This document shows positions 2,571-26,968 of a DNA stretch of 32,784 nucleotides, piece by piece. A program made the position numbers and the translations under genes. Position 1 is the stretch's first letter, and each line of letters opens with the position of its first letter. Source of the stretch: Candidatus Saccharimonadota bacterium (GTDB lineage Bacteria; Patescibacteriota; Saccharimonadia; Saccharimonadales; JAGQMS01). The notes below the pieces were generated by a model that did no database searches, was not told where the DNA came from, and was given only the letters and a program-made list of their open reading frames with translations. The stretch is taken from assembly GCA_043719125.1 (NCBI GenBank), contig JAYSUL010000037.1, positions 1 to 32,784 on the forward strand, in the 5' to 3' direction.

Positions 2571-3773
2571 ATGGAAATACTTTTGCTTATAGTGGGGCTG
2601 ATACTTTTTGTGGCTCTAGTTGTTGTACATGAATTCGGACATTTCATAATGGCCAGGCGCAATGGTGTTGAGGTAGAAGAATTTGGAGTAGGGTTTCCGC
2701 CTAAAGCCAAAACACTCAAAGTAGATAAACATGGTACTGAGTACACGCTAAATTGGTTCCCATTGGGCGGTTTTGTACGTTTAAAGGGCGAGCATGACGC
2801 AGATAAAGAAAAAGGCTCTTTCGGAAAGGCTAGTTTCTGGGCTAAGACAAAGATAATCTTGGCTGGCGTGGTGATGAATCTATTTACAGCCTGGGTGCTT
2901 TTGACGCTACTCGCAGTAGTTGGCATCCCAAAGCTTCCGTTACCAGGGGGGGAAGAGCAGTTTACGGTCGCATCTGATACTAAAATTGTCAGCAATAAAG
3001 TTTTTGTAGGATACGTTGAACCAGATGGTCCTGCAGACAAAGCGGGGCTAAAAACTGGTGATCGACTCTTATCGTTGCGGTCCGGTAACACGGAAGATGC
3101 GTTTAGGTATACTGAAAAAGCATCAAACTTACGTAGTTCAACGGAGGAACTACTCAGAAGCGGCGCTTCGGATATCAATGTCCTATATATACGTGACAAC
3201 ATTACGGATGGGACGAGTGTTAGCTCTCGATCGCTAAACGAAGTTAAGGCATCAATAGATTCTAATCAGATATGTAAAGCGGAATTGATAAATATTCAAA
3301 GAGATTGTCCACCGATTAAAGGGTACCTCGGAATTGTACCGTATGACTATACGGTACAGCGCTCTACCTGGTCAGCACCGATTGTTGGTGCGGGTCTAAT
3401 CGGACAGTACTCTCGGCTTACGTACTCTGCACTCGGATCAAGCGTTGCTAGTCTATTTCAGGGCAAAGGTGGTGAGGCAAGTGAAAATGTTTCTGGTCCA
3501 ATCGGCATATTTGTTGTGCTCAAGGAAGGTGCATCATTTGGTCCGAGTTATATTCTGCTAATTATTGCCCTACTATCACTGACGCTGGCCATCATGAATA
3601 CACTGCCTATTCCTGCGCTCGACGGTGGTAAGCTGGCCGTTATGCTACTTTTCCGGGCGATAAAGAAGCCTTTGACACCCCAGCTAGAAGAACGGATCCA
3701 TGGCAGTGGCTTCATGCTTCTCATGGGGTTATTTGTAGTGATAACATTCGTCGACGTCCGACGATTCTTCTAG
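2571..3773 (+). CDS. rseP: Site-2 (M50 family) intramembrane zinc metalloprotease, RseP-like, with one PDZ domain
   Basis: HEFGH sits in the first TM helix. A PDZ-like segment is present (GYVEPDGPADKAGLKTGDRLLSL). The second motif is NTLPIPALDGG. The position after uppS is conserved. Confidence 0.9.
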   Translation: MEILLLIVGLILFVALVVVHEFGHFIMARRNGVEVEEFGVGFPPKAKTLKVDKHGTEYTLNWFPLGGFVRLKGEHDADKEKGSFGKASFWAKTKIILAGVVMNLFTAWVLLTLLAVVGIPKLPLPGGEEQFTVASDTKIVSNKVFVGYVEPDGPADKAGLKTGDRLLSLRSGNTEDAFRYTEKASNLRSSTEELLRSGASDINVLYIRDNITDGTSVSSRSLNEVKASIDSNQICKAELINIQRDCPPIKGYLGIVPYDYTVQRSTWSAPIVGAGLIGQYSRLTYSALGSSVASLFQGKGGEASENVSGPIGIFVVLKEGASFGPSYILLIIALLSLTLAIMNTLPIPALDGGKLAVMLLFRAIKKPLTPQLEERIHGSGFMLLMGLFVVITFVDVRRFF

Positions 3774-3774
3774 T

Positions 3775-4503
3775 ATGAAAAAACCTAGCCATCAAGCTAA
3801 AACCGACATAAGGCAAAAACTATTTGGGGTGCTTGTTGATCTTCTGAGTGTTGGGTTCGTGTATCTTGTAAGTCAGCTTGTAATCGTTATTGTTCTGTCG
3901 CTTGCGGGTATTTCCGACTCTAGTGAATTAGATTTCCACCCAAATGTTCTGCTGGCTGCGTATATTGCATCTGGTTATAGTATTGTGCTGACTTTGTATG
4001 GGCTATTAAAGGTACGCAAGATAAATGTATCGATTCTACAACTGAAAAAGCCGAGGTGGGGTGATTTGGGCTATGGACTGATGGGATTTGGTACGTATTT
4101 TCTTATTACTCTCGTTGTAACAAGTATCATTAGGCTTATACCGGGCCTAGATTTGAACCAAAGCCAGAACCTCGGCCTTCAGAATATAGATGATTCACAG
4201 CTACTAACAGTATTTTTTGCCCTAGCCGTGCTCCCTCCCTTGGCAGAAGAGCTGCTGTTTAGAGGGTTTCTCTACGGTCGATTAAAACAGCATAGAGTAC
4301 TGCCATACGTAGGAGCAATAATCACCAGTCTTGTCTTTGGGCTTGTACATGGACAGTTAAATGTCGGTATAGATACCTTCATTTTATCCATGGTTATGAT
4401 CTATATTCTCGAGATACGAAAGAACATATGGTCTACTATCTTTCTGCACTCCATAAAGAACACTGTGGCGTTTCTGGCGTTGTTTGTTTTTAAGATCGTA
4501 TAA
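3775..4503 (+). CDS. CPBP (CAAX protease/bacteriocin-processing) family intramembrane glutamic endopeptidase
   Basis: It is multi-TM, with EELLFRG (motif 1), FGLVHG (motif 2) and LHSIKN (motif 3). The ATG is 1 nt after the rseP stop. Confidence 0.85.
   Translation: MKKPSHQAKTDIRQKLFGVLVDLLSVGFVYLVSQLVIVIVLSLAGISDSSELDFHPNVLLAAYIASGYSIVLTLYGLLKVRKINVSILQLKKPRWGDLGYGLMGFGTYFLITLVVTSIIRLIPGLDLNQSQNLGLQNIDDSQLLTVFFALAVLPPLAEELLFRGFLYGRLKQHRVLPYVGAIITSLVFGLVHGQLNVGIDTFILSMVMIYILEIRKNIWSTIFLHSIKNTVAFLALFVFKIV
4479..4503. repeat. Direct repeat copy 1 (last 7 codons plus the TAA stop of the CPBP gene)
   Basis: GTTGTTTGTTTTTAAGATCGTATAA recurs at 4644-4668 with 24/25 identity. The only difference changes the stop from TAA to TGA. 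Confidence 0.9.
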
Positions 4504-4551
4504 AATAGCACGATATATTTTAGAATTTATTTCTGAAATATATTTCCTTGA

Positions 4552-4635
4552 AGGGGTGGATCCGCCGAGAGATCTATAGATCTCCCGGACGCTAAGGCGG
4601 GGAAACCTAGAGACCATCAGGTCGGTTTCACCGCC
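4552..4635. other. Structured element of unknown function between the direct repeats (possible cis-regulatory or small RNA)
   Basis: There is a 24-nt hairpin at 4565-4588 with a perfect 16-nt palindrome core, GAGATCTATAGATCTC (4569-4584). A second stem pairs GGCGGGGAAACC (4596-4607) with GGTTTCACCGCC (4624-4635), 11/12 bp. CCGCC at 4562-4566 and at 4631-4635 can each pair with GGCGG at 4596-4600. Confidence 0.35.
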
Positions 4636-4643
4636 TTAAGATG

Positions 4644-4668
4644 GTTGTTTGTTTTTAAGATCGTATGA
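4644..4668. repeat. Direct repeat copy 2 (non-coding copy of the CPBP 3' end, with a TGA stop)
   Basis: GTTGTTTGTTTTTAAGATCGTATGA lies exactly 165 nt downstream of copy 1. Confidence 0.9.
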
Positions 4669-4786
4669 GGTACACTATATGGAAATGAAAATGACACGCA
4701 CATCATTTACCCCGAAGAACATGCCGGCTAAGGCCGACTATATTATTCTTTAATTATTTTTCAGTACATAAAATTCGGAGTAAACA

Positions 4787-6040
4787 ATGCGCGTATCACA
4801 ACTTATAACTAAAACTAGAAAAGAAGCACCTGCCGACGAGACGGCCAAGAATGCTCAGCTACTCATTCGAGCTGGTTATGTAAACAAGGAAATGGCGGGT
4901 GTCTATAGTTTCCTGCCACTTGGACTACGTACGCTAAATAAGATTTCTCAGATTATCCGAGAAGAGATGGATGCTATTGGTGGACAAGAGCTTCTGATGC
5001 CGTCCTTACAGTTACCAGAAAGGTATGAAGCCACCGGCCGATGGGATGATAAAGCAGTAGATATCTGGTTCAAGACTCAGCTAGCTAACGGGACAACACT
5101 TGGGCTAGGTTTTTCTCACGAAGAGAATCTCGTTCCTATCGTCAAAAATTATCTTAATTCCTATAAAGAGCTTCCGTTTTCTATGTATCAGATCCAGTGG
5201 AAGTTCAGAAATGAGCTCCGTAGTAAGAGTGGAATTATGCGCGGGCGTGAATTTCTTATGAAAGATATGTACTCTTTCTCACTCACCCAAGACCAACATG
5301 ATGAGTATTATGAGAAGGTTAAACAGGCATATGTGAGGGTTTATGACAGGCTCGGGATTGGGCACAATACCTACTATGCATTTGCGAGTGGCGGTAGCTT
5401 CAGTAAATATAGCCATGAATTTCAAACTCTTAGCGATGTGGGCGAGGATACGATCTACATTAACCGTGAAAAAAAGATCGCGATTAACAAGGAAGTACTT
5501 GAAGACGACATACTAGCAGAGCTTGACGTTACGAAGGATGAGCTAGAAGAGGTACGGGCCATTGAAGTAGGTAATATATTCGGGCTGGGTACTAAATTCT
5601 CCGCACCGTTCAACCTATCTGTAAAAGATGAGAATGGTGAAGAGCACACAGTTATTATGGGTTGCTACGGTATAGGTGTAACGAGGGTAATGGGGACGAT
5701 TGCAGAGCTTATGAGTGACGATAGAGGGCTTGTATGGCCAAAACAGATCGCACCATACCAGCTGCACATTACATCGCTTGGGGGTGACGATGCAGTTACG
5801 GAAGACGCGCTGAAATTATACGAATCATGTAAGTCAGCTGGTATAGAAGTACTTTGGGATGATCGAGACGTATCTGCTGGCGAAAAGTTTGCAGACGCAG
5901 ATCTGATGGGTATGCCACTTAGAGTAGTAGTGAGTAAAAAAACACTAGAGGGAGGGGCTTATGAGGTCAAGGATAGGCGATCAGGAGAGGTTGAATCCAT
6001 GAAGTTAGATAGCCTGATACAAAGGATTTTAGCAATTTGA
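4787..6040 (+). CDS. proS: Prolyl-tRNA synthetase, short form (417 aa) with no INS editing insertion
   Basis: Class II motifs are present: RGREFLMKDMYSF (motif 2 region) and GCYGIGVTRVMG (motif 3). A C-terminal anticodon-binding domain follows. A GGAG Shine-Dalgarno lies 6 nt upstream. Confidence 0.93.
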   Translation: MRVSQLITKTRKEAPADETAKNAQLLIRAGYVNKEMAGVYSFLPLGLRTLNKISQIIREEMDAIGGQELLMPSLQLPERYEATGRWDDKAVDIWFKTQLANGTTLGLGFSHEENLVPIVKNYLNSYKELPFSMYQIQWKFRNELRSKSGIMRGREFLMKDMYSFSLTQDQHDEYYEKVKQAYVRVYDRLGIGHNTYYAFASGGSFSKYSHEFQTLSDVGEDTIYINREKKIAINKEVLEDDILAELDVTKDELEEVRAIEVGNIFGLGTKFSAPFNLSVKDENGEEHTVIMGCYGIGVTRVMGTIAELMSDDRGLVWPKQIAPYQLHITSLGGDDAVTEDALKLYESCKSAGIEVLWDDRDVSAGEKFADADLMGMPLRVVVSKKTLEGGAYEVKDRRSGEVESMKLDSLIQRILAI

Positions 6041-6139: not shown

Positions 6140-6601
6140 ATGAAAAAACAATTTCATTTAACTGAAGAGGGAATCACAGAGCTAAAAGCTGAGCTAGTGG
6201 TACTTCTATCTAATCGGACGGAGGTAGCGGATGCTATCCGAGTTGCAAGAGAACAGGGTGATCTATCAGAAAACGCCGAGTATCAGGCGGCCAAGCAAGA
6301 TCAAGAGCGACAAGAGACTCGTATAGGGGAGCTAGAGCACATTCTCAAGAATATGGCCGTTATTAAAAAGCCAAAGGTTGCAGATAAGGTCAGCCAGGGT
6401 TCAACTGTAGTACTTAAAAGCGATAATGGTAAGGAAAAGACCTTCACTATTGTCGGTACTGTCGAGGCTGACCCGTTAAACGGCAAAATTTCCGATGAGT
6501 CACCTATCGGTAAGGCTCTTCTCGGCAAAAAACAAGGCGAAGAGGTTGAGATTACTACTCCCGCTGAGACAGCAACTTATAAAGTTATTTCGATAGCCTG
6601 A
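6140..6601 (+). CDS. greA: Transcription elongation factor GreA
   Basis: It is 153 aa. It has an N-terminal coiled coil with GDLSENAEYQAAK and a C-terminal domain with SPIGKALLGKKQGEEV. Confidence 0.93.
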   Translation: MKKQFHLTEEGITELKAELVVLLSNRTEVADAIRVAREQGDLSENAEYQAAKQDQERQETRIGELEHILKNMAVIKKPKVADKVSQGSTVVLKSDNGKEKTFTIVGTVEADPLNGKISDESPIGKALLGKKQGEEVEITTPAETATYKVISIA

Positions 6602-6933
6602 TGATTGAGTACGCTGACTTTGAGAAAGTCGATATTCGTGTCGGCGTGGTTACTGCAGTTGATGATTTTCCTCAGGCACGAAAACCTGCGTACAAACTAA
6701 CTATCGACTTTGGGCCAGAAATTGGCATCAAGAGATCCAGTGCACAAATCACTACTCACTATACAAAAGATGAACTGTTTGGCAGAAAAGTTCTTGCGGT
6801 TGTAAACTTTCCTGAGAAGCAAATCGGCCCATTTATCAGCCAGGTTCTAACTCTCGGTACCCCAGACATAAACGGCGACGTTATCCTTGTCGACCCAGGA
6901 CAAGACTCTATAACCGGATCAAGACTGTTCTAA
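6601..6933 (+). CDS. tRNA-binding domain protein (CsaA/Trbp111-like OB fold)
   Basis: It is 110 aa. FEKVDIRVGVVTAV...ARKPAYKLTIDFG...RSSAQIT is typical of the CsaA family. The start shares 1 nt with the greA stop (TGATG). Confidence 0.8.
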   Translation: MIEYADFEKVDIRVGVVTAVDDFPQARKPAYKLTIDFGPEIGIKRSSAQITTHYTKDELFGRKVLAVVNFPEKQIGPFISQVLTLGTPDINGDVILVDPGQDSITGSRLF

Positions 6934-6973: not shown

Positions 6974-9292
6974 ATGGCAACACTCAAAGACTTCAGAGAC
7001 GAACGACTACGCAAATTAGAAGAGTTAAAAAAACTTGGCATTAATCCATACCCAGCCGTGGCCCATCGGACACATACGACTGATATGATAGTGTCTCAGT
7101 TTGCTAGTCTAGAGGGTCAAACAGTTACGATTCCCGGCCGCATAATGTCTATCCGTAAATTCGGAAAGCTCGCCTTTATCGTGATTAAAGATGGTTGTGG
7201 CATAGTTCAATTATTTATCAAAGAAGGTAATGCTTCCGCAGAACCAAATCGCTCAAATTCTGAGCTTCTGATGCCCGGCGAGATAGGTCTACTTGATAGC
7301 GGAGACTTTGTTGAAGCGACAGGTACTGTTATCAAAACTCAGACGGGCGAAATATCGGTTGATGTTTCTAGTCTTCGTATTCTCACTAAAGCGCTACGTC
7401 CTATGCCATCACCCCAGGACGGTTTTACTGATAAAGAGCAACGTCAACGTAGACGCTATATTGATACAAATGTAAATGAAGATGTTAAGCAGAGGTATAT
7501 ACGTAGGAGCAAATTTTGGCAGGCATGTAGGGAGTTCCTGATTCAGGACGATTTCATCGAAATCAACATACCTGTTCTGGAGCACACTACGGGCGGTGCA
7601 GATGCAAACCCGTTTGTCACTCATATGGATGCGCTTGATCAGGACTTTTATCTACGTATTTCACACGAACTTCCACTTAAAAGACTTATAGGCGGTGGTT
7701 ATGAGAAAGTATTTGATATTGGCCCGAGGTTCAGAAACGAGAACTATTCTGATGAGCATTTACCTGAGCACATCGCAATGGAGTGGTATTGGGCTTATGC
7801 TGACTGGAACATGGGCATGGAGCAAGTCGAGAAAATGTTTAGTTTTGTGATGGAGCGCACTTTTGGTAAGACCTCGTTTAATGTGCGAGGTTTTGACATA
7901 GATTTTTCTAAGCCATGGGTAAAACTAGACTACGCCCAGGTTATCAAAGACAATTATGATCTTGATGTGTTCAGCTGCTCAATAAAAGATGTCCAGGCTA
8001 AACTTGCTGAACACAAACTTGAGGTTGAGAAAACAGACAATATCCCCCGTGGTATCGACAAGTTATGGAAAAAGGTACGAGCAACCACCGGTGGTCCTGC
8101 GTGGCTCATCAATACACCGCTATTCATCAGCCCCCTAGCTAAATCCAATGACGATGATCCTAACACAGTCCAAAGGTTCCAGGCTGTAATTGCGGGTAGT
8201 GAGCTTGTTAACGGTTATTCAGAGCTAAATGATCCCCTTGATCAGCTCAACAGGTTTCAGGAGCAAGAAGAGCTCCGTGCCGGTGGCGATGCAGAGGCCC
8301 AGATGCTTGATATTGATTATGTCGAGATGCTCGAGTATGGCATGCCTCCTACATGTGGTTTTGGTATCTCAGAGCGTGTATTTTGGTTTTTTGAGGGGGT
8401 TACTGCTCGTGAAGGAGTACCGTTTCCGCAGCTTCGCACAGAAGTTGATGAGGTAACTAGGGGTATTTATCCGCAGATTGCTTTTTCACCTCACGATACA
8501 AACCAAAAGAAAATCGAGTTACCAAAAGGTGATCTTCCGGTTTCAGCTGTCGAGCAGGGTACTAAAAAGTTATATCTCGATGACTATTCACTTCTGGAAT
8601 GTGATTCGGTAGTTGTTTCGACAGAGGATCTGGGCGAGGGATCGTTACGTCTTATCCTAGACCAAACGTGTTTTTACCCAGGCGGTGGTGGGCAAAATCA
8701 TGATCTTGGAGTGATCTCATGGGATGATGGGTCTTTACAGATCGAAAGCATTACAAAAGACAAAGAAGGTGTTGTGTATCATGACGGAATCCTGGAGGGA
8801 GTGATTTGCGCCGATGGATCCTCGGTCCGTAGCTTCGTTGATTCAGATCGGAGATTACTAAATTCTCGCCTGCATAGCGCTGGGCACTTGATTGACTACG
8901 CAGTTCTAAAAGCTGGAAAAAGCTGGAAAAGCGGGAAAGGTGCGCACTATCCAGATATGAGCTTTGTGGAGTATTCTGGTGATTTCTCTGACCAGGACCC
9001 TGTCGACTTACCGCCTAAAATTGAATCTATACTTCACGACTATATAAATAATGGTGGAGGTGTCTCGGTTGCACGCGTGCCGAGTGAAAAAGCTAGCGAG
9101 TTTTCTGAGTATATCCCAGAATATGTGATTAAAAGCTACCAAAATGTACACATCGCGTCATACCCTGATAATTTCAACATTTGCTGTGGCGGAACACATG
9201 TATCTGATGTATCGCAAATCGGTAAAGTTGTTATCACAAAGATCAAGAAAAAAGACGGTCAGATCCGCGTAAGCTACGAACTAGGTTCCTGA
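6974..9292 (+). CDS. lysS: Class II lysyl-tRNA synthetase fused to a C-terminal AlaX-type (tRNA_SAD) editing domain
   Basis: Residues 1 to about 495 carry an OB anticodon domain and a class II core (RRRYIDTNVN, GGADANPF, LRISHELPLKRL, FRNENYSDEHLPEH, GFGISERV). From about residue 537 the sequence is AlaX-like: LYLDDY, LDQTCFYPGGGGQ, HSAGH (nt 8873-8887) and CGGTH (nt 9185-9199). The ORF is uninterrupted. Confidence 0.9.
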   Translation: MATLKDFRDERLRKLEELKKLGINPYPAVAHRTHTTDMIVSQFASLEGQTVTIPGRIMSIRKFGKLAFIVIKDGCGIVQLFIKEGNASAEPNRSNSELLMPGEIGLLDSGDFVEATGTVIKTQTGEISVDVSSLRILTKALRPMPSPQDGFTDKEQRQRRRYIDTNVNEDVKQRYIRRSKFWQACREFLIQDDFIEINIPVLEHTTGGADANPFVTHMDALDQDFYLRISHELPLKRLIGGGYEKVFDIGPRFRNENYSDEHLPEHIAMEWYWAYADWNMGMEQVEKMFSFVMERTFGKTSFNVRGFDIDFSKPWVKLDYAQVIKDNYDLDVFSCSIKDVQAKLAEHKLEVEKTDNIPRGIDKLWKKVRATTGGPAWLINTPLFISPLAKSNDDDPNTVQRFQAVIAGSELVNGYSELNDPLDQLNRFQEQEELRAGGDAEAQMLDIDYVEMLEYGMPPTCGFGISERVFWFFEGVTAREGVPFPQLRTEVDEVTRGIYPQIAFSPHDTNQKKIELPKGDLPVSAVEQGTKKLYLDDYSLLECDSVVVSTEDLGEGSLRLILDQTCFYPGGGGQNHDLGVISWDDGSLQIESITKDKEGVVYHDGILEGVICADGSSVRSFVDSDRRLLNSRLHSAGHLIDYAVLKAGKSWKSGKGAHYPDMSFVEYSGDFSDQDPVDLPPKIESILHDYINNGGGVSVARVPSEKASEFSEYIPEYVIKSYQNVHIASYPDNFNICCGGTHVSDVSQIGKVVITKIKKKDGQIRVSYELGS

Positions 9293-9347: not shown

Positions 9348-10880
9348 ATGAAACAGGCACATGCACTTGGGATTTTGGCGGAGGGGAAGTCGGTATTTTT
9401 AACCGGCCCTGCTGGTAGTGGTAAAACGTATGTCCTGAACCAATTTGTACGCTACGCTAGAGATAACGGTAAAAAGGTTGCCGTCACTGCTAGTACCGGT
9501 CTAGCTGCTACACACCTCGGGGGCAATACGATCCACTCGTGGGCAGGGATTGGTATCCACGACGAAGTCAAAAAATATATGATCGCCGAAATGAGCAAAA
9601 CACGTCGAGATCAGATCGTTGGTGCGGATATACTGGTGATTGATGAGGTCTCTATGCTTCATGACTACCGTCTCGATATGGTCGAGCAGGTCTGTCGTGA
9701 AGTTCGGGGTGATGCAGAGCCGTTTGGCGGGTTGCAGGTAGTACTTTGCGGAGATTTTTTCCAGCTACCCCCTATCAACAGAGATGAAGGCAAGCAGGGT
9801 GGGTTTATCGTTAGCTCCCAAGCATGGGAAGACTTGGATCCAGTGATTTGCTATCTCGATGAACAGCATCGCCAGGAAGACGACCAACTACTTGAAATTT
9901 TGACCGCGCTACGGGGTAACGATCTTCGTCGTCGTCACGCTGAAGCGCTTTTGGAGCGCAAAATGTTCAGGACGCCTTTCGATGAGGTTGTAACTGAGCT
10001 ATATACGAGGAACGAAAACGTAGACCGGATAAACGACCAGAAACTTTCAGAGGTCGATGCAGAACTGCATGAATTTGAAATGACACATACCGGTAGGGCC
10101 TCGGGCGTAGAGTCGCTCATGAAAAGCTGTCTAGCTCCAGAAGTACTGAGGCTCAAACAGGGCGCATTTGTGATGTTCGTCAAAAACTCGCTTGAGAAGA
10201 AGTATGTTAACGGTACCCTCGGAACTGTTGTAGATTTTGAGAATCTCACCGGTTATCCGGTTGTGCAAACAAAAGATGGTAAAACAGTTACAGCAAAACC
10301 AGATACTTGGGAGCTTCGTGATGGTGAAAAAAAGATAGCTAGCATAAGTCAGATACCACTTCGTTTGGCATGGGCAATCACTGTCCATAAAAGCCAAGGT
10401 ATGACACTGGATGGGGCACACATTGATCTATCCAATGCCTTTGTACCTGGTATGGGTTATGTTGCGCTTTCTAGGGTCAAAACACTCGCATCTTTAACAC
10501 TAGGTGGTCTTAATAAAATGGCGCTTACGATGAATATGGAAGCTGGTGAGATTGATAAAAAGTTACGTAAGAAATCATCGAGTGACGAAGAAAAACTAAA
10601 GCACCTCGCAAAAACTTGGGACAAACTTGTAAAGAAGAAGCCAAAGAAAAAGGAATCATCCGGTGACTGGGCTGAGAAACTTAGCAAGATGCGCGAAGGC
10701 CACCCAAATGCCTATATGCCATGGAAAGATCTCGATGATCTACGTCTTGTCAAAAAAGCTACTGAGGGTATGACAATCAAAGCAATGAGCAAAGACTTTG
10801 GTAGGCACGAGGGAAGTATACGCTCAAGGCTAGAGAAGTTGCTGGGCGAAGAATGGCTTAGCAAAACTAGCAAGAAATAG
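9348..10880 (+). CDS. PIF1/RecD-like SF1 DNA helicase with a basic linker and a C-terminal HTH-like domain
   Basis: Walker A is GPAGSGKT and Walker B is LVIDEVSM. Other helicase motifs are CGDFFQLPP, AITVHKSQG and GYVALSRV. The C-terminal tail has a KKKPKKK stretch and a helical module (MTIKAMSKDFGRHEGSIRSRLEKL). Confidence 0.85.
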   Translation: MKQAHALGILAEGKSVFLTGPAGSGKTYVLNQFVRYARDNGKKVAVTASTGLAATHLGGNTIHSWAGIGIHDEVKKYMIAEMSKTRRDQIVGADILVIDEVSMLHDYRLDMVEQVCREVRGDAEPFGGLQVVLCGDFFQLPPINRDEGKQGGFIVSSQAWEDLDPVICYLDEQHRQEDDQLLEILTALRGNDLRRRHAEALLERKMFRTPFDEVVTELYTRNENVDRINDQKLSEVDAELHEFEMTHTGRASGVESLMKSCLAPEVLRLKQGAFVMFVKNSLEKKYVNGTLGTVVDFENLTGYPVVQTKDGKTVTAKPDTWELRDGEKKIASISQIPLRLAWAITVHKSQGMTLDGAHIDLSNAFVPGMGYVALSRVKTLASLTLGGLNKMALTMNMEAGEIDKKLRKKSSSDEEKLKHLAKTWDKLVKKKPKKKESSGDWAEKLSKMREGHPNAYMPWKDLDDLRLVKKATEGMTIKAMSKDFGRHEGSIRSRLEKLLGEEWLSKTSKK

Positions 10881-22915: not shown

Positions 22916-23001
22916 TCGCCCTAAGGTATAATATATTCCAGATCTATACCGATAGCGGAGTGGGGTTTACTACTATAAGGTTTCCGAGGGGTTTTATATA
23001 C

Positions 23002-25665
23002 ATGAAAAAGTTTGCCAGCAAAAAGACACAAAAAGCCGATCATAAGGACTTTGAACTTAAAGCGTCTAACCGTTCTGTTTCAAAGTTTTTTAAAGTCATA
23101 CTAGGCGATAATCAAAAAGCCAACTTGAGACGCTACTACAAAAAAGTAGCTGAAATTAATAAACTCGAAGATGATTATAAAGAGAAGTCCGATGCTGAGC
23201 TTCGTGCTATGACTGACGATTTTAGAAAGCAACTTGAGACAAAGTCTACGGATACAATCTTGCCACACGCATTTGCAGTGGTGCGCGAAGCAGCAAGGCG
23301 AGTGCTAGGCCAGCGACATTTTGATGTGCAGCTTATTGGCGGCATGGTGCTCCACGAAGGTAAGGTCGCTGAAATGAAAACCGGTGAAGGTAAAACAATT
23401 GTTGCGACGCTACCTCTTTATCTCAACGCACTAACTGGTAAGGGTGCGCACCTTGTAACTGTCAATGATTATCTCGTCCGAATTGGAGCTGGCTGGATGG
23501 GTCAGATATATGACTTCTTGGGTCTATCGGTTGGTGTTATCATGCCAGACGCATCATATATCTACGATAAAAATCATAACGATGAATCACACGATGATGA
23601 GCGACTTAGCCATCTGCGCCCATGCAGTCGGCAAGAGGCGTACCGTGCAGATATCACCTATGGTACTAACAACGAGTTTGGTTTTGACTACCTGCGTGAC
23701 AATATGGTTAGAGAAGACGCTCAGCTACGTCAGCGTGACCTACACTTTGCTATTGTCGATGAGGTGGACTCGATCTTGATTGACGAGGCCAGGACGCCGC
23801 TTATTATTTCCGCACCATCTGTAGCAAGCGCCGCATCATATCAGCAGTTCTCGAGAATTGCGATGCAGCTAAAACCCGAACACTACGAAAAAGACGAAAA
23901 GCGGCGTGCAGTGCACCTCACCGAAATAGGTGTAGAAAAGGTTGAGAAGCTCCTCGGTATCGATAATCTGTATGGTCCAGATAATATCAGGATGATTTAT
24001 CACCTCGATCAGGCACTTAGGGCTCAGACACTGTTTACGCGTGATAAAGACTACGTTGTTGCGAATGATGGCGAGGTTATCATTGTTGACGAATTCACGG
24101 GGCGTCTCCTAAAGGGCAGGCGATATAACGAAGGGCTACACCAGGCCATTGAAGCCAAAGAAGGCGTAGAAGTCCAAGAAGAGTCGATGACACTGGCAAC
24201 TATATCGTTTCAGAATCTTTTCCGTTTGTATGAAAAACTGTCAGGTATGACTGGAACTGCTACCACAGAGGCCGAAGAGTTTCACCAGATCTATAAACTG
24301 GATGTAGTCGAGATCCCGACTAATCAAAAAATGATCAGGAAAGATCTAGCAGACCGTATATATAAAACTGAAGCAGCAAAATTTAAAGCAGTTACTGCAC
24401 TCGTCAAAGAGCTGCACAGTAAGGGTCAGCCAGTCCTAATTGGTACATCCAGTATCGAACGAAACGAAGTGCTCGGTGCCATGTTTAAGAAGTCGGGCAT
24501 CCCACACCAGATGCTTAACGCCAAAAATAACGAACGTGAAGCAAAGATCGTTATGGAAGCTGGGCAAAAAGGTGCCGTTACTATCGCTACCAACATTGCC
24601 GGACGTGGTACGGACATTATGCTGTCCGACGAGACCAGGAAGCTGGGTGGTCTGTATGTAATTGGTAGTGAGCGGAATGAGTCGCGCCGTGTTGACAACC
24701 AATTCCGTGGCCGTTCAGGTCGTCAGGGCGATCCAGGAACAACTCAGTTTTACGTATCGTGCGAAGATAGTTTGATGAGGATTTTTGCTGGTGACCGCAT
24801 CGCAAAAGTTATGGACAGGCTCAAAGTTGACGAAGACACGCCACTTGAAAATCGTTTTGTTAGTAAGAGCTTAGAGGGAGCCCAAAAGAAAGTTGAGGGG
24901 TTCAACTACGACTCACGTAAGAATGTCGTGCAGTACGACGACGTTATGAACCGCCATCGTCGCGCTGTCTATGCAATGCGCAAAAAGCTACTTAACGATA
25001 CTGATGTATCAGGTAAGATCAAAGAGTTCATCGACGAAGAGACCAAACTGCTTGCCTCACTTCCCGGTATAGACGCCGAGTATGAGAAAACTATTACTGA
25101 AGTATTCCCATTTGATGATGCAACATTAGATCGGCTATTTGATGCGGAGGCAGATCGATTTGAGCAGGTTCTTAAGCAAGAATCGATGGAGCTATATGAA
25201 AGCAAGGAGATAGTCTTCACCAATAATGTTATCCGTGAAGTTGAGCGCGATATATATTTCCAGGTCCTCGACGATTTATGGATGAGACATCTTGAAAATA
25301 TGGATCATTTACGCGAGGGAATTCACTGGTACAGTGTAGGGCAACGTGATCCGCTTGTAGAGTATCGCCGTCAAGCACAGTTACTATTCGAATCAATGCA
25401 GCACAATCTTCGTCATGATACGCTGAGGGCTCTGTTTCACGCGACACCTATCGATCCAGATGACTTATTAGCGCCAACAGAGACAGAGCTTACCCGTGCC
25501 GCAAGAAGCTCAGTTGATAACGCCAGCAAGATTATCGAAGGAGAGATTGTACACGAAGAAGACTTCGCCAAGAAGAAGCCAGCACAAAAGGTTAAAGCTA
25601 AGACAACAATTAAAAAAGCCCGTAAACAAGAGCGCAAGCGTCGAGCAAAAGGCAAAAAGCGGTAG
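23002..25665 (+). CDS. secA: Preprotein translocase ATPase SecA
   Basis: Motifs are MKTGEGKT, VTVNDYL, DEVDSILIDEARTPLIIS and TNIAGRGTDI. I chose the ATG at 23002, which has a GAGGGG Shine-Dalgarno 11 nt upstream, over the GTG at 22960. Confidence 0.95.
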   Translation: MKKFASKKTQKADHKDFELKASNRSVSKFFKVILGDNQKANLRRYYKKVAEINKLEDDYKEKSDAELRAMTDDFRKQLETKSTDTILPHAFAVVREAARRVLGQRHFDVQLIGGMVLHEGKVAEMKTGEGKTIVATLPLYLNALTGKGAHLVTVNDYLVRIGAGWMGQIYDFLGLSVGVIMPDASYIYDKNHNDESHDDERLSHLRPCSRQEAYRADITYGTNNEFGFDYLRDNMVREDAQLRQRDLHFAIVDEVDSILIDEARTPLIISAPSVASAASYQQFSRIAMQLKPEHYEKDEKRRAVHLTEIGVEKVEKLLGIDNLYGPDNIRMIYHLDQALRAQTLFTRDKDYVVANDGEVIIVDEFTGRLLKGRRYNEGLHQAIEAKEGVEVQEESMTLATISFQNLFRLYEKLSGMTGTATTEAEEFHQIYKLDVVEIPTNQKMIRKDLADRIYKTEAAKFKAVTALVKELHSKGQPVLIGTSSIERNEVLGAMFKKSGIPHQMLNAKNNEREAKIVMEAGQKGAVTIATNIAGRGTDIMLSDETRKLGGLYVIGSERNESRRVDNQFRGRSGRQGDPGTTQFYVSCEDSLMRIFAGDRIAKVMDRLKVDEDTPLENRFVSKSLEGAQKKVEGFNYDSRKNVVQYDDVMNRHRRAVYAMRKKLLNDTDVSGKIKEFIDEETKLLASLPGIDAEYEKTITEVFPFDDATLDRLFDAEADRFEQVLKQESMELYESKEIVFTNNVIREVERDIYFQVLDDLWMRHLENMDHLREGIHWYSVGQRDPLVEYRRQAQLLFESMQHNLRHDTLRALFHATPIDPDDLLAPTETELTRAARSSVDNASKIIEGEIVHEEDFAKKKPAQKVKAKTTIKKARKQERKRRAKGKKR

Positions 25666-25666
25666 T

Positions 25667-26968
25667 ATGCTGAAGCATACTGTATCTGAAGTCACACTAT
25701 GTAGTGGCGCAAAAGGCTTGTTCATCGATATACCCGACGCTTCTGTGATGAGCTATCGGATCAATTTCAGGGCAGGAGATGTCTACGTTGAGGCGGATGA
25801 AAAATGGGAAACAGCTCATATCATGGAGCATCTTTCACTTGGCGCAAATAAAAAGTTCAAGTCAGCTCGGGAATACCAGGCTTTCCTCGAGAAAAATGGT
25901 GCCTATAGTAATGCAAGCACTGGCCAGACTGATATGATCTACGAAGCTGAGTGTGCTGACTTCGAGTGGGAGTCATTCACTGAACTTTTTACTTTGGGGA
26001 TTTCACAACCGCTATTTTTAGAGTCGGAATTTGAGGCAGAGTGTGGAAATGTACATGAAGAACTTATCGGTCGTGGTAATAACCATGCGGGTAGGCTAGG
26101 GCTCGAGATGGCAAAGAAATATGGTTTTAGGATGAAAACGTTTCAGGAACGTGTTGATTTGATGCAGAATGTCACGTTAGGTGACATAAAAAAACATTAC
26201 AAAAACACTCACTTTGCAGAAAACATGCGGTTTATTATTGCAGGAAAGCTAAAAGGACGACAGACAAAGCTAAAAAACATACTTGAGTCCATGACACTGC
26301 CCAAAAATGCCAAAGGTGTCAGATTTGAAATACCGAGTGAAACTCCAAATAATTTTGGAGAGCCTCTGTTTGTTGAAAATAACTCTGTTCCTAACGCGTA
26401 CTTTTACATTGATACATACTGTAACTATGAGCTACAGATGGAAGATCTGTATTCACTCGGTTTACTCGAGACAATCTTGACCGATACACTCTATTCTCGC
26501 ATTTTGGGTGAGGCAAGAGAGAAAGGGTTAATTTACTATTTGTCTAGTAATTATTATCGTAATATCGGGCATTCATCTTGGTGGTTTGGATCCCAGATTT
26601 CGGAAAAACAACTCGCACCTTTCCTCGACATCTTTGTTAGAGAGTTAGCAGATGCAAAAGCAGGAAAAATCACCGACAAAGATATCGATGCGGCAAAGAT
26701 GAATCAATTGGGCGGCTTTCAGCGTGATGCTCAGACAGTTAATTCTCTTGTCGGTGGTTACGGAAATATGTATTTCTATAATGGTGGAATCACAGATTAT
26801 TACACCAACTTCGAGGCAAAACTAAAAAAGATATCAAGAGAAAATATGACTGATGTAGCAAATAAAATGTTTGCGGATAATGTATGGGGTATAGGTTTTC
26901 TCGGGACAATCTCAGAAAAAGCACGCAGTTCGGCCCAAGCACAAATTTCTAGTCTTTGGGAAAAATAG
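25667..26968 (+). CDS. M16 (pitrilysin) family zinc peptidase
   Basis: The inverted zinc motif HIMEH (HxxEH) is present with downstream glutamates (EAECGNVHEE). I chose the ATG at 25667, directly after the secA stop, over the listed 25496 start that overlaps secA. Confidence 0.85.
   Translation: MLKHTVSEVTLCSGAKGLFIDIPDASVMSYRINFRAGDVYVEADEKWETAHIMEHLSLGANKKFKSAREYQAFLEKNGAYSNASTGQTDMIYEAECADFEWESFTELFTLGISQPLFLESEFEAECGNVHEELIGRGNNHAGRLGLEMAKKYGFRMKTFQERVDLMQNVTLGDIKKHYKNTHFAENMRFIIAGKLKGRQTKLKNILESMTLPKNAKGVRFEIPSETPNNFGEPLFVENNSVPNAYFYIDTYCNYELQMEDLYSLGLLETILTDTLYSRILGEAREKGLIYYLSSNYYRNIGHSSWWFGSQISEKQLAPFLDIFVRELADAKAGKITDKDIDAAKMNQLGGFQRDAQTVNSLVGGYGNMYFYNGGITDYYTNFEAKLKKISRENMTDVANKMFADNVWGIGFLGTISEKARSSAQAQISSLWEK

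Follow-up and report, generated by a model that had tools for sequence, protein, structure and literature searches.

Lysyl-tRNA synthetase (LysRS) is, to our knowledge, one of the synthetases without a known post-transfer editing domain. AlaX, whether free-standing or part of alanyl-tRNA synthetase (AlaRS) or threonyl-tRNA synthetase (ThrRS), is seen as devoted to protecting alanine codons. The AARS Online overview lists AlaX only as a free protein, at the C terminus of AlaRS, and at the N terminus of ThrRS. Canonical AlaX-M is a deacylase specific for tRNA(Ala) that carries Ser or Gly (PMC11295145, PMC11260482, and PMC12003907). A 2026 study that mined for AlaX proteins sorted them by length and kept those that stand alone (PMC13149037). 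Here we describe lysS-alaX, a gene in which a LysRS is joined in frame to a complete AlaX-M module. It lies at positions 6974 to 9292 of contig JAYSUL010000037.1, from a Candidatus Saccharimonadota bacterium. We refer to the whole stretch of DNA that was analyzed, 32,784 nucleotides (nt) in length, as the window.

All of the domains in this protein are known, but the LysRS-AlaX architecture and its distribution appear to be undescribed. The initial annotation of the window knew of no description of AlaX on LysRS. Our full-text literature search, in which subscription journals were thinly covered, also found no published description of LysRS fused to AlaX, or to DUF2000 or B3_4, two domains that relatives carry.

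The lysS-alaX gene and its product

The ORF listing shows lysS-alaX as a single uninterrupted open reading frame (ORF) with an ATG start, which has 772 codons plus a stop. The gene and all of its parts described below are on the forward strand. Other frames over positions 6974 to 9292 contain short ORFs only, and both alternative forward frames are filled with stops at the junction (nt 8400-8600). The GC content and the GC content of third codon positions (GC3) are 0.444 and 0.405 in one half of the ORF and 0.447 and 0.409 in the other. Therefore, there is no compositional seam between the LysRS and AlaX parts. The initial annotation had proposed an in-frame fusion between a full class II LysRS and a complete AlaX-M module with both zinc motifs, and Pfam, NCBIfam, alignment to PDB sequences, and Foldseek all bear this out. 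It had also predicted that Pfam would return tRNA_anti-codon, tRNA-synt_2, and tRNA_SAD in that order. This is the order found, with a fragment of tRNA-synt_2c between the last two.

The first part of the protein is a canonical class IIb LysRS (residues 8-490). Its N-terminal OB-fold anticodon-binding domain spans residues 51-137 (7124-7384; Pfam PF01336, E = 1.1e-11) and was modeled with a predicted local distance difference test score (pLDDT) of ~90-95. The class II catalytic core follows at residues 154-486 (7433-8431; PF00152, E = 3e-60). In NCBIfam, residues 6-489 matched TIGR00499 (lysS_bact) with 431.1 bits, which is over the equivalog cutoff of 427.6, and the protein scored 466.7 bits against NF001756, slightly under its cutoff of 468. 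A full-length AlphaFold model had a pLDDT of 82.9. When that model was used in a Foldseek search, only LysRS structures were returned, with a target-side template modeling (TM) score (TMt) of 0.82 for LysU/LysS.

The LysRS core is followed by a conserved tail, residues 488-504 (RTEVDEVTRGIYPQIAF; 8435-8485), which we defined from an alignment of 50 fusions and bare LysRS sequences. This tail is common to all Saccharimonadia LysRS proteins, fused or unfused. Bare LysRS proteins end in it (...TKSIYPxφxF), and appended modules begin after it. Because residues 488-504 belong to the shared LysRS tail, the truly variable linker is only ~16 residues long (505-520, SPHDTNQKKIELPKGD; 8486-8533). This linker has low conservation and variable length, and it was modeled with a pLDDT below 50 at residues 506-516. 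The layout of the fusion in the initial annotation therefore stands, but the boundaries shift: AlaX starts at about residue 521 rather than 537, and the variable linker has ~16 rather than ~40 residues.

The AlaX module comprises residues 521-772, from a conserved LPxSAxxxGTKKLY to the C terminus of the protein, which extends four residues beyond the AlaX core. It has an N-terminal beta-barrel subdomain (8534-8848) and an editing core with the zinc site (8849-9289), without a C-Ala domain. The barrel contains the Gly-rich FYPGGGGQ, matches positions 485-552 of the tRNA-synt_2c profile and the AlaXM profile from position 1, and was modeled with a pLDDT of 90-97. The N-terminal motif segment LDQTCFYPGGGGQ noted in the initial annotation is present, with GGGQ at residues 571-574 (nt 8684-8695). 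So are both zinc motifs of the editing core, HSAGH at residues 634-638 (nt 8873-8887) and CGGTH at residues 738-742 (nt 9185-9199).

Profile searches matched the C-terminal part of tRNA-synt_2c at residues 558-626 (E = 3e-11; 43.1 bits versus a cutoff of 30.3) and tRNA_SAD at residues 737-765 (E = 1e-5; 25.8 bits versus a cutoff of 24). NCBIfam AlaXM (NF040865) aligned to residues 530-769 over profile positions 1-232 of 234 (E = 2e-30). The best PDB sequence matches were the editing region of Archaeoglobus fulgidus AlaRS (E = 1e-16) and Pyrococcus horikoshii AlaX-M (PhAlaX-M; 2E1B, E = 2e-14). The HMMER alignments placed both metal motifs in register. The module is only ~25% identical to solved archaeal AlaX proteins.

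We also modeled the module alone because the search with the full-length model had returned LysRS structures only. This model had a pLDDT of 89 and a predicted TM score (pTM) of 0.85. The initial annotation had suggested a structure prediction, and in this one the module superposed along its whole length (~250 columns) on AlaX-M structures 9IUW, 3KEW, and 2E1B (TMt 0.79-0.83). It also superposed over its whole length on archaeal AlaRS editing regions (TM 0.76-0.81), whereas AlaX-S structures matched its C-terminal core only. Other identities were considered and rejected. A ThrRS-type N2 domain gave a Foldseek TM of only ~0.45. As for an alanyl-tRNA synthetase, only positions 485-552 of the 552 in tRNA-synt_2c are matched, and the alaS model TIGR00344 scored 83.6 bits against a cutoff of 457.

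The four predicted zinc ligands (H634, H638, C738, and H742) were invariant in 90 of 90 fused modules, in an alignment anchored on authentic E. coli alaS. GGGQ was invariant in the 50 aligned fusions, and all 90 fused relatives examined kept GGGQ, HxxxH, and CxxxH. G637 and G739 are the residues typical of free-standing AlaX-M proteins. The fusion alignment also has a conserved Lys-rich hairpin, KIKKK, at residues 756-760. The nearest relatives for which DNA is available have at most ~70% nucleotide identity, and synonymous sites are saturated. Judged by these sequence comparisons, both halves appear to be complete and under purifying selection. The models predict LysRS and AlaX to be separate, well-folded units on either side of a low-confidence linker. 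The AlaX module is apparently catalytically intact and is a predicted zinc-dependent deacylase.

Distribution and history of the fusion

We searched 5.8 billion proteins with the full window protein as query. This returned more than 80 full-length relatives of ~760-790 amino acids (aa), which were 54-77% identical at 100% coverage and were encoded on many independent contigs of metagenomes and metagenome-assembled genomes (MAGs). Those with names were assigned to Candidatus Saccharimonadales, Saccharibacteria, or Patescibacteria, and at least 90 protein clusters carry the same continuous LysRS-AlaX ORF. We also scanned GTDB, with one genome per species, using two AlaX-derived peptide patterns. 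This found 14 loci with a continuous 760- to 797-aa fusion. Twelve are named as members of the Saccharimonadales/Saccharibacteria/Patescibacteria group, and the other two (Verrucomicrobiia and Magnetospirillaceae) are probably misbinned. The survey of related genomes that the initial annotation had called for thus found the same fusion repeatedly, and the many independent contigs and genomes with the same reading frame answer its concern about a chimera or hidden frameshift. In the alignment of 50 fusions, mean identity was 66% for LysRS, 55-57% for AlaX, and ~40-44% for the linker, which is the lowest in the protein. Database labels of the fused and related entries include "lysine--tRNA ligase," "amino acid--tRNA ligase-related protein," and "DUF2000 family protein."

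A second, distant lineage has the same arrangement. P0270, a LysRS-AlaX protein of 762 aa, has the same collinear domain order as the window protein at only 36% identity. It is the starting point of another large group in which the same set of architectures is found, and GGGQ, HxxxH, and CxGxH are intact in the members that bear AlaX. Two of these AlaX-bearing members have gene neighborhoods unrelated to that of the window. The names SR1 and Abawacabacteria in this group attach only to LysRS-DUF2000 members, among which the name "Patescibacteria group" also occurs.

The fused gene is apparently the housekeeping lysS copy, orthologous to ordinary lysS, as judged from synteny, the TIGR00499 cutoff, and the Foldseek match. 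It sits in a greA-(tRNA_bind)-lysS-pif1 slot, and this slot is occupied by a bare LysRS at locus L001 and by LysRS-DUF2000 at L005. L001, a contig of 132 kb, is fully syntenic with the window (RRF, UppS, RseP, Rce1-like, prolyl-tRNA synthetase [ProRS], GreA, tRNA_bind, LysRS, and PIF1). Its LysRS is 84% identical over the LysRS part and ends after the shared tail at 516 aa, and PIF1 begins 158 bp downstream.

In close relatives, AlaX also occurs as a gene of its own. When the module alone was used in a word-indexed search, free AlaX proteins with 50-61% identity to it were found. At L053 (5447-7762), one TGA inside the linker separates lysS (512 aa) from alaX (253 aa), and the two genes share a reading frame. 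The called start of alaX is a TTG that has AGAGGG located 9 nt upstream, and its protein is present on three contigs. The TGA could reflect plain fission or some read-through. L053 is syntenic with the fused locus L060, and between them AlaX is 78% identical versus 71% for the LysRS part. Therefore, AlaX has been kept under selection as a separate protein. At L055, alaX has its own ATG and is directly after greA, with no lysS in between. At L056, there is a LysRS-DUF2000 gene (3013-4974) and a free alaX two genes later. The free alaX products of L055 and L056 are 52-61% identical to the fused module. In one GTDB MAG (L007; CAYTEG010000010.1, ~3960-4010), the LysRS and AlaX halves are out of frame. 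The shift falls within the linker and is either an assembly error or a frameshift that arose recently in this single MAG. P0121 and P0122 also appeared as free matches (51-53% identical) in the search of cluster representatives described below, but we rejected them as evidence of fission because they are truncated calls on ~1-kb contigs.

To place the module among AlaX proteins, we used it alone in a HMMER search of 1.84 billion cluster representatives, which gave 1207 matches at E ≤ 1e-10. Almost all of the 150 best nonfused relatives among these matches were free-standing proteins of ~230-260 aa with 31-41% identity, and none of these 150 was of AlaRS length. This places the module in the AlaX-M lineage and rules it out as an editing domain transplanted from AlaRS. 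In the GTDB scan, free AlaX-M genes were found in other Saccharibacteria, Parcubacteria, Peregrinibacteria, and assorted bacteria, not adjoining lysS. AlaX-M-type modules are also fused to proteins other than synthetases. P0200, a 677-aa protein of the eukaryote Platysulcus tardus, has one joined to a class V aminotransferase, and the metagenomic proteins P0152 and P0153 (~360-377 aa) have one joined to an AMPK1_CBM glycogen-binding domain.

In a neighbor-joining tree of LysRS cores, AlaX fusions are on all of the deep branches, and the crown clade that includes the window mixes fused, DUF2000-fused, and bare proteins. In the AlaX-module tree, free copies are nested at several separate places within the fused clade. 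Both are distance trees that lack support values, so they do not establish how many fusion and fission events occurred. The fusion is evolutionarily labile. In the simplest history suggested by these sequences, the fusion is old and has since undergone fission, loss, and exchange of modules many times. It would have arisen once or a few times early in the Patescibacteria from a lysS-alaX gene string, and it would later have repeatedly come apart, disappeared, or gained DUF2000 or B3_4 modules.

These other modules are also on the C-terminal side of LysRS. LysRS-DUF2000 proteins are ~620-820 aa long and have DUF2000 at the same C-terminal point as AlaX; P0095, at L005 (8001-9965), is an example. 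A C-terminal DUF2000 on LysRS is very common in the Patescibacteria, including candidate division SR1 and Abawacabacteria, with ~80 such proteins in one search. Both the Saccharimonadia lineage and the second, distant one have LysRS-DUF2000-AlaX triple fusions of 877-1031 aa. They include P0086 (909 aa; L003, 1083-3812), P0394, P0395, P0402, P0407, and P0408. P0102 is a 1005-aa LysRS-B3_4-AlaX protein (L004, 6001-9018). DUF2000 matches the structure of the uncharacterized protein Atu0240 (2GAX, E = 3e-8) and has a subthreshold Pfam match to peptidyl-tRNA hydrolase PTH2 (E = 2e-4; 22 bits versus a cutoff of 23). The B3_4 insert of P0102 is nearest to stand-alone B3/4 deacylases, including CtdA (9F7E, E = 1e-12; also 9MKL), whereas beta subunits of phenylalanyl-tRNA synthetase match it only at E ≥ 0.01. 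CtdA is a canavanyl-tRNA(Arg) deacylase (PMC10018355 and PMC12449066).

The genes around the fusion were examined as well. As the initial annotation had stated, a CsaA-like gene is directly upstream and a nearby ProRS has no editing domain. The upstream gene (6601-6933, forward strand) encodes a 110-aa CsaA/Trbp111-like tRNA_bind protein (PF01588, E = 1.6e-10), and its start overlaps the greA stop (ATGA). Its presence upstream of lysS is restricted to the crown clade (seen in the window, L001, and L005), and it is absent between greA and lysS in L004, L053, L056, L059, and L060. Therefore, it does not track the AlaX fusion. The 417-aa ProRS (4787-6040) consists only of a class II core plus an HGTP anticodon domain; Pfam found no INS/tRNA_edit domain in it. 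The ProRS beside P0102 in L004 has 580 aa and includes PF04073, so ProRS editing capacity varies within the group. Directly downstream of the fusion is a PIF1-family helicase gene (9348-10880) with a Lys-rich C-terminal extension of ~100 aa, and its position is kept in L001 and L005. Farther along, an M16-peptidase ORF with a GTG start (25496-26968) overlaps the 3' end of secA (22960-25665) by ~170 nt, and its true start is probably further downstream. Heliorhodopsin genes are near the greA-lysS region on two Saccharibacteria-type contigs (L059, 8519-9301, and L056, 12294-13253). The window lacks tRNA genes, as do 20 of the 21 related loci, and the remaining locus has a single tRNA-Arg.

Possible functions of the tethered module

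We favor a model in which a housekeeping LysRS carries a flexibly tethered, active AlaX-M that, acting in trans, clears Ser or Gly from tRNA(Ala), and we give it about an even chance of being correct. The LysRS half would charge tRNA(Lys) in the usual way. The AlaX-M-type zinc-dependent deacylase would be attached to its C terminus by a short disordered tether and would act like a free AlaX-M. The LysRS dimer would supply 1:1 coexpression, dimerization, and perhaps general tRNA affinity. The C-Ala domain is the source of these features in AlaX-L and AlaRS, and in its absence from this module the LysRS body would stand in for it. Action in trans, independent of the tether, is suggested by the split genes of L053, the free alaX genes of L055 and L056, the free copies nested within the fused clade, and the disordered linker.

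Some observations weigh against this model. The deacylase role of every family member is predicted from sequence and models, and the module scored 106 bits against NF040865, far under the equivalog cutoff of 300 of that archaeal-centered model. AlaX-family members with noncanonical substrates, BesG and AlfB, are known (PMC13149037). In E. coli AlaRS, R693 contacts the G3:U70 pair of tRNA(Ala), and relaxed-specificity AlaX-S and eukaryotic AlaX proteins have Glu, Ile, or Leu there (PMC11260482). MAFFT aligned R693/R694 of E. coli AlaRS to I764/R765 of the window protein, whereas an ungapped count from CxxxH puts R693 on R765 (nt 9266-9268), so the register is ambiguous by one residue. With that ambiguity, position 765 is Arg in 79 and Lys in 7 of 90 fused modules, and position 764 is Ile in 70 of 90. 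If I764 is the true equivalent of R693, then the module might resemble the relaxed-specificity eukaryotic AlaX (PMC11260482). Finally, three different hydrolase-type modules are found on LysRS, in two lineages that are only 36% identical and have unrelated neighborhoods. A purely passive scaffold explains this poorly, and the pattern may point to a functional link with LysRS or tRNA(Lys).

That last observation is also the strongest support for true LysRS editing, which we consider unlikely but the main rival. Here, the tethered AlaX, like DUF2000 and B3_4 in relatives, would act in cis or within the dimer on mischarged tRNA(Lys). All three deacylase-type modules are at the LysRS C terminus. 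This would provide a post-transfer site that a class IIb synthetase normally lacks, and the mischarged amino acid would be a small one or an analogue. Jakubowski reportedly found in 1999 that LysRS-II can, in vitro, mischarge tRNA(Lys) with a number of amino acids, among them Ser, Ala, and Thr. With 16-35 residues, the flexible tether would be compatible with reaching the CCA end on the same dimer, and AlaX-family enzymes can evolve new aminoacyl or tRNA specificities (PMC13149037). The association with LysRS also recurs across the two distant lineages. However, the module looks functional as a separate gene in sister lineages, and the copy in L055 and L056 does not adjoin lysS. Close relatives have a bare LysRS at the same locus. 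G637, G739, and the zinc ligands are the same as in ordinary free AlaX-M, and the Arg at or adjoining the G3:U70 determinant is mostly kept. Moreover, the outgroup free AlaX-M genes of other Patescibacteria are not beside lysS, so that adjacency of lysS and alaX is most simply a relic of fission. In its broadest form, this idea would have patescibacterial LysRS equipped with its own modular post-transfer proofreading, in which AlaX-M, PTH2-like DUF2000, and CtdA-like B3_4 hydrolyze tRNA(Lys) mischarged with near-cognate or host-derived analogues. We regard that version as tentative, too, and would not expect it to hold.

The initial annotation had suggested that a reduced genome consolidated its tRNA proofreading onto LysRS. 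The relatives with DUF2000 and CtdA-like B3_4 lend this circumstantial support. We still only infer it, because the module is also a separate gene in close relatives and no AlaRS gene came to light whose editing domain could be compared: none is in the window, and tblastn with the catalytic core of E. coli AlaRS found none in 513 kb of related loci. A related idea is that the module might compensate for an AlaRS that has lost its editing domain.

A third explanation is that AlaX is active with relaxed or different specificity and LysRS is a mere carrier. Organisms of this kind depend on their hosts for amino acids. The module might be a general Ser-tRNA deacylase, like eukaryotic AlaX, that would also act on tRNA(Thr) or tRNA(Ser), or a deacylase for a host-derived nonproteinogenic amino acid. 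On the MAFFT register, the R693 position is Ile in 70 of 90 modules, which is hydrophobic as in the human and yeast AlaX proteins that ignore G3:U70 (PMC11260482). AlaX-S is not tRNA specific (PMC11295145), BesG and AlfB show the substrate range of the family (PMC13149037), and the NCBIfam score is well under the AlaXM equivalog cutoff. However, a hydrophobic residue and then Arg or Lys are also found at these two positions in A. fulgidus AlaRS and in most free AlaX-M proteins, so this is an M-type pattern and not a derived one. In addition, there is no biosynthetic gene cluster context around the fusion in the window. We consider this explanation quite improbable.

It is very doubtful that the module is a noncatalytic appendage that adds only tRNA-binding capacity. 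There is a precedent in Plasmodium tryptophanyl-tRNA synthetase (TrpRS), in which an AlaX-like domain aids tRNA binding and aminoacylation (PMC3680381), and the KIKKK hairpin would suit such a role. However, the four zinc ligands are replaced in the Plasmodium protein (PMC3680381), whereas here all four and GGGQ are invariant in 90 of 90 modules and are also present in the second lineage. Furthermore, the module was kept as a separate gene after fission. An artefact, in which a chimera, missed stop, or frameshift joined two ordinary genes, can be dismissed almost entirely: the L007 frameshift and the L053 in-frame stop show that breaks occur in the linker, but the window frame is open throughout with equal composition on both sides, and the same ORF runs without a break in at least 90 independent protein clusters and in 14 GTDB genomes.

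In a large branch of the Candidate Phyla Radiation, LysRS has a conserved, intact AlaX, and sister architectures bear DUF2000 or a B3_4 domain resembling the canavanyl-tRNA deacylase. This shows that ultra-small genomes arrange translational quality control differently. The fused, split, and absent forms are a natural series for testing the effect of tethering on editing, and the fusions provide a concrete handle on DUF2000 function. Hundreds of generically labeled database entries are flagged by this analysis, and length-filtered AlaX surveys (PMC13149037) will have missed such fusions. If tRNA(Ala) is the substrate, this would be a clean case of a trans-editing factor physically recruited to a noncognate synthetase. 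If tRNA(Lys) is edited, this would be a new pathway, with the first known editing site of a class IIb synthetase and, if DUF2000 acts likewise, the first function for that domain.

Comparison with known systems

The closest described proteins are the AlaX-M proteins of P. horikoshii (PH0108, 2E1B), P. furiosus (9IUW), and C. perfringens (3KEW). They have the same two-subdomain fold, Gly-rich motif, and HxxxH/CxxxH motifs, and they also lack C-Ala. However, they are free-standing proteins of ~215-260 aa, whereas the window module is covalently attached to the C terminus of LysRS and its activity is predicted from sequence. The cis-editing domain of AlaRS has a homologous fold and zinc motifs (the best PDB match by sequence and by structure is to residues ~500-737 of A. 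fulgidus AlaRS) and is likewise C-terminal to a class II core. The host differs, in that it is the class IIb LysRS here, and the window protein has neither the AlaRS catalytic domain nor C-Ala.

The AlaX-like domain (AXD) of apicomplexan TrpRS is the only described fusion of an AlaX-family module to a synthetase other than AlaRS and ThrRS that we found (PMC3680381). Like the window protein, it combines an AlaX-family module, a flexible linker, and a dimeric synthetase. However, the AXD is AlaX-S-like, N-terminal, and eukaryotic, has lost its zinc ligands, and is thought to be noncatalytic (PMC3680381). The window module is AlaX-M-type, C-terminal, and bacterial, and its ligands are invariant.

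LysX of mycobacteria, an MprF-LysRS fusion, is another bacterial LysRS fused to a tRNA-dependent enzyme, and the LysRS half of the window protein matches its model (NF002821) with an E value of 7e-109. The partner in LysX is an N-terminal lysyl-phosphatidylglycerol synthase that consumes Lys-tRNA(Lys), and there is no such domain in the window protein. Identity as a LysX/MprF fusion was rejected at 365 bits versus a cutoff of 742 (NF002821).

The ProXp-ala-ProRS fusion of Plasmodium and the INS domain of bacterial ProRS follow the same principle as lysS-alaX, in which a deacylase is free in some lineages and fused in others (PMC11295145). However, ProXp-ala and INS edit the errors of their own host synthetase, whereas the errors that AlaX is known to correct come from a synthetase other than LysRS.

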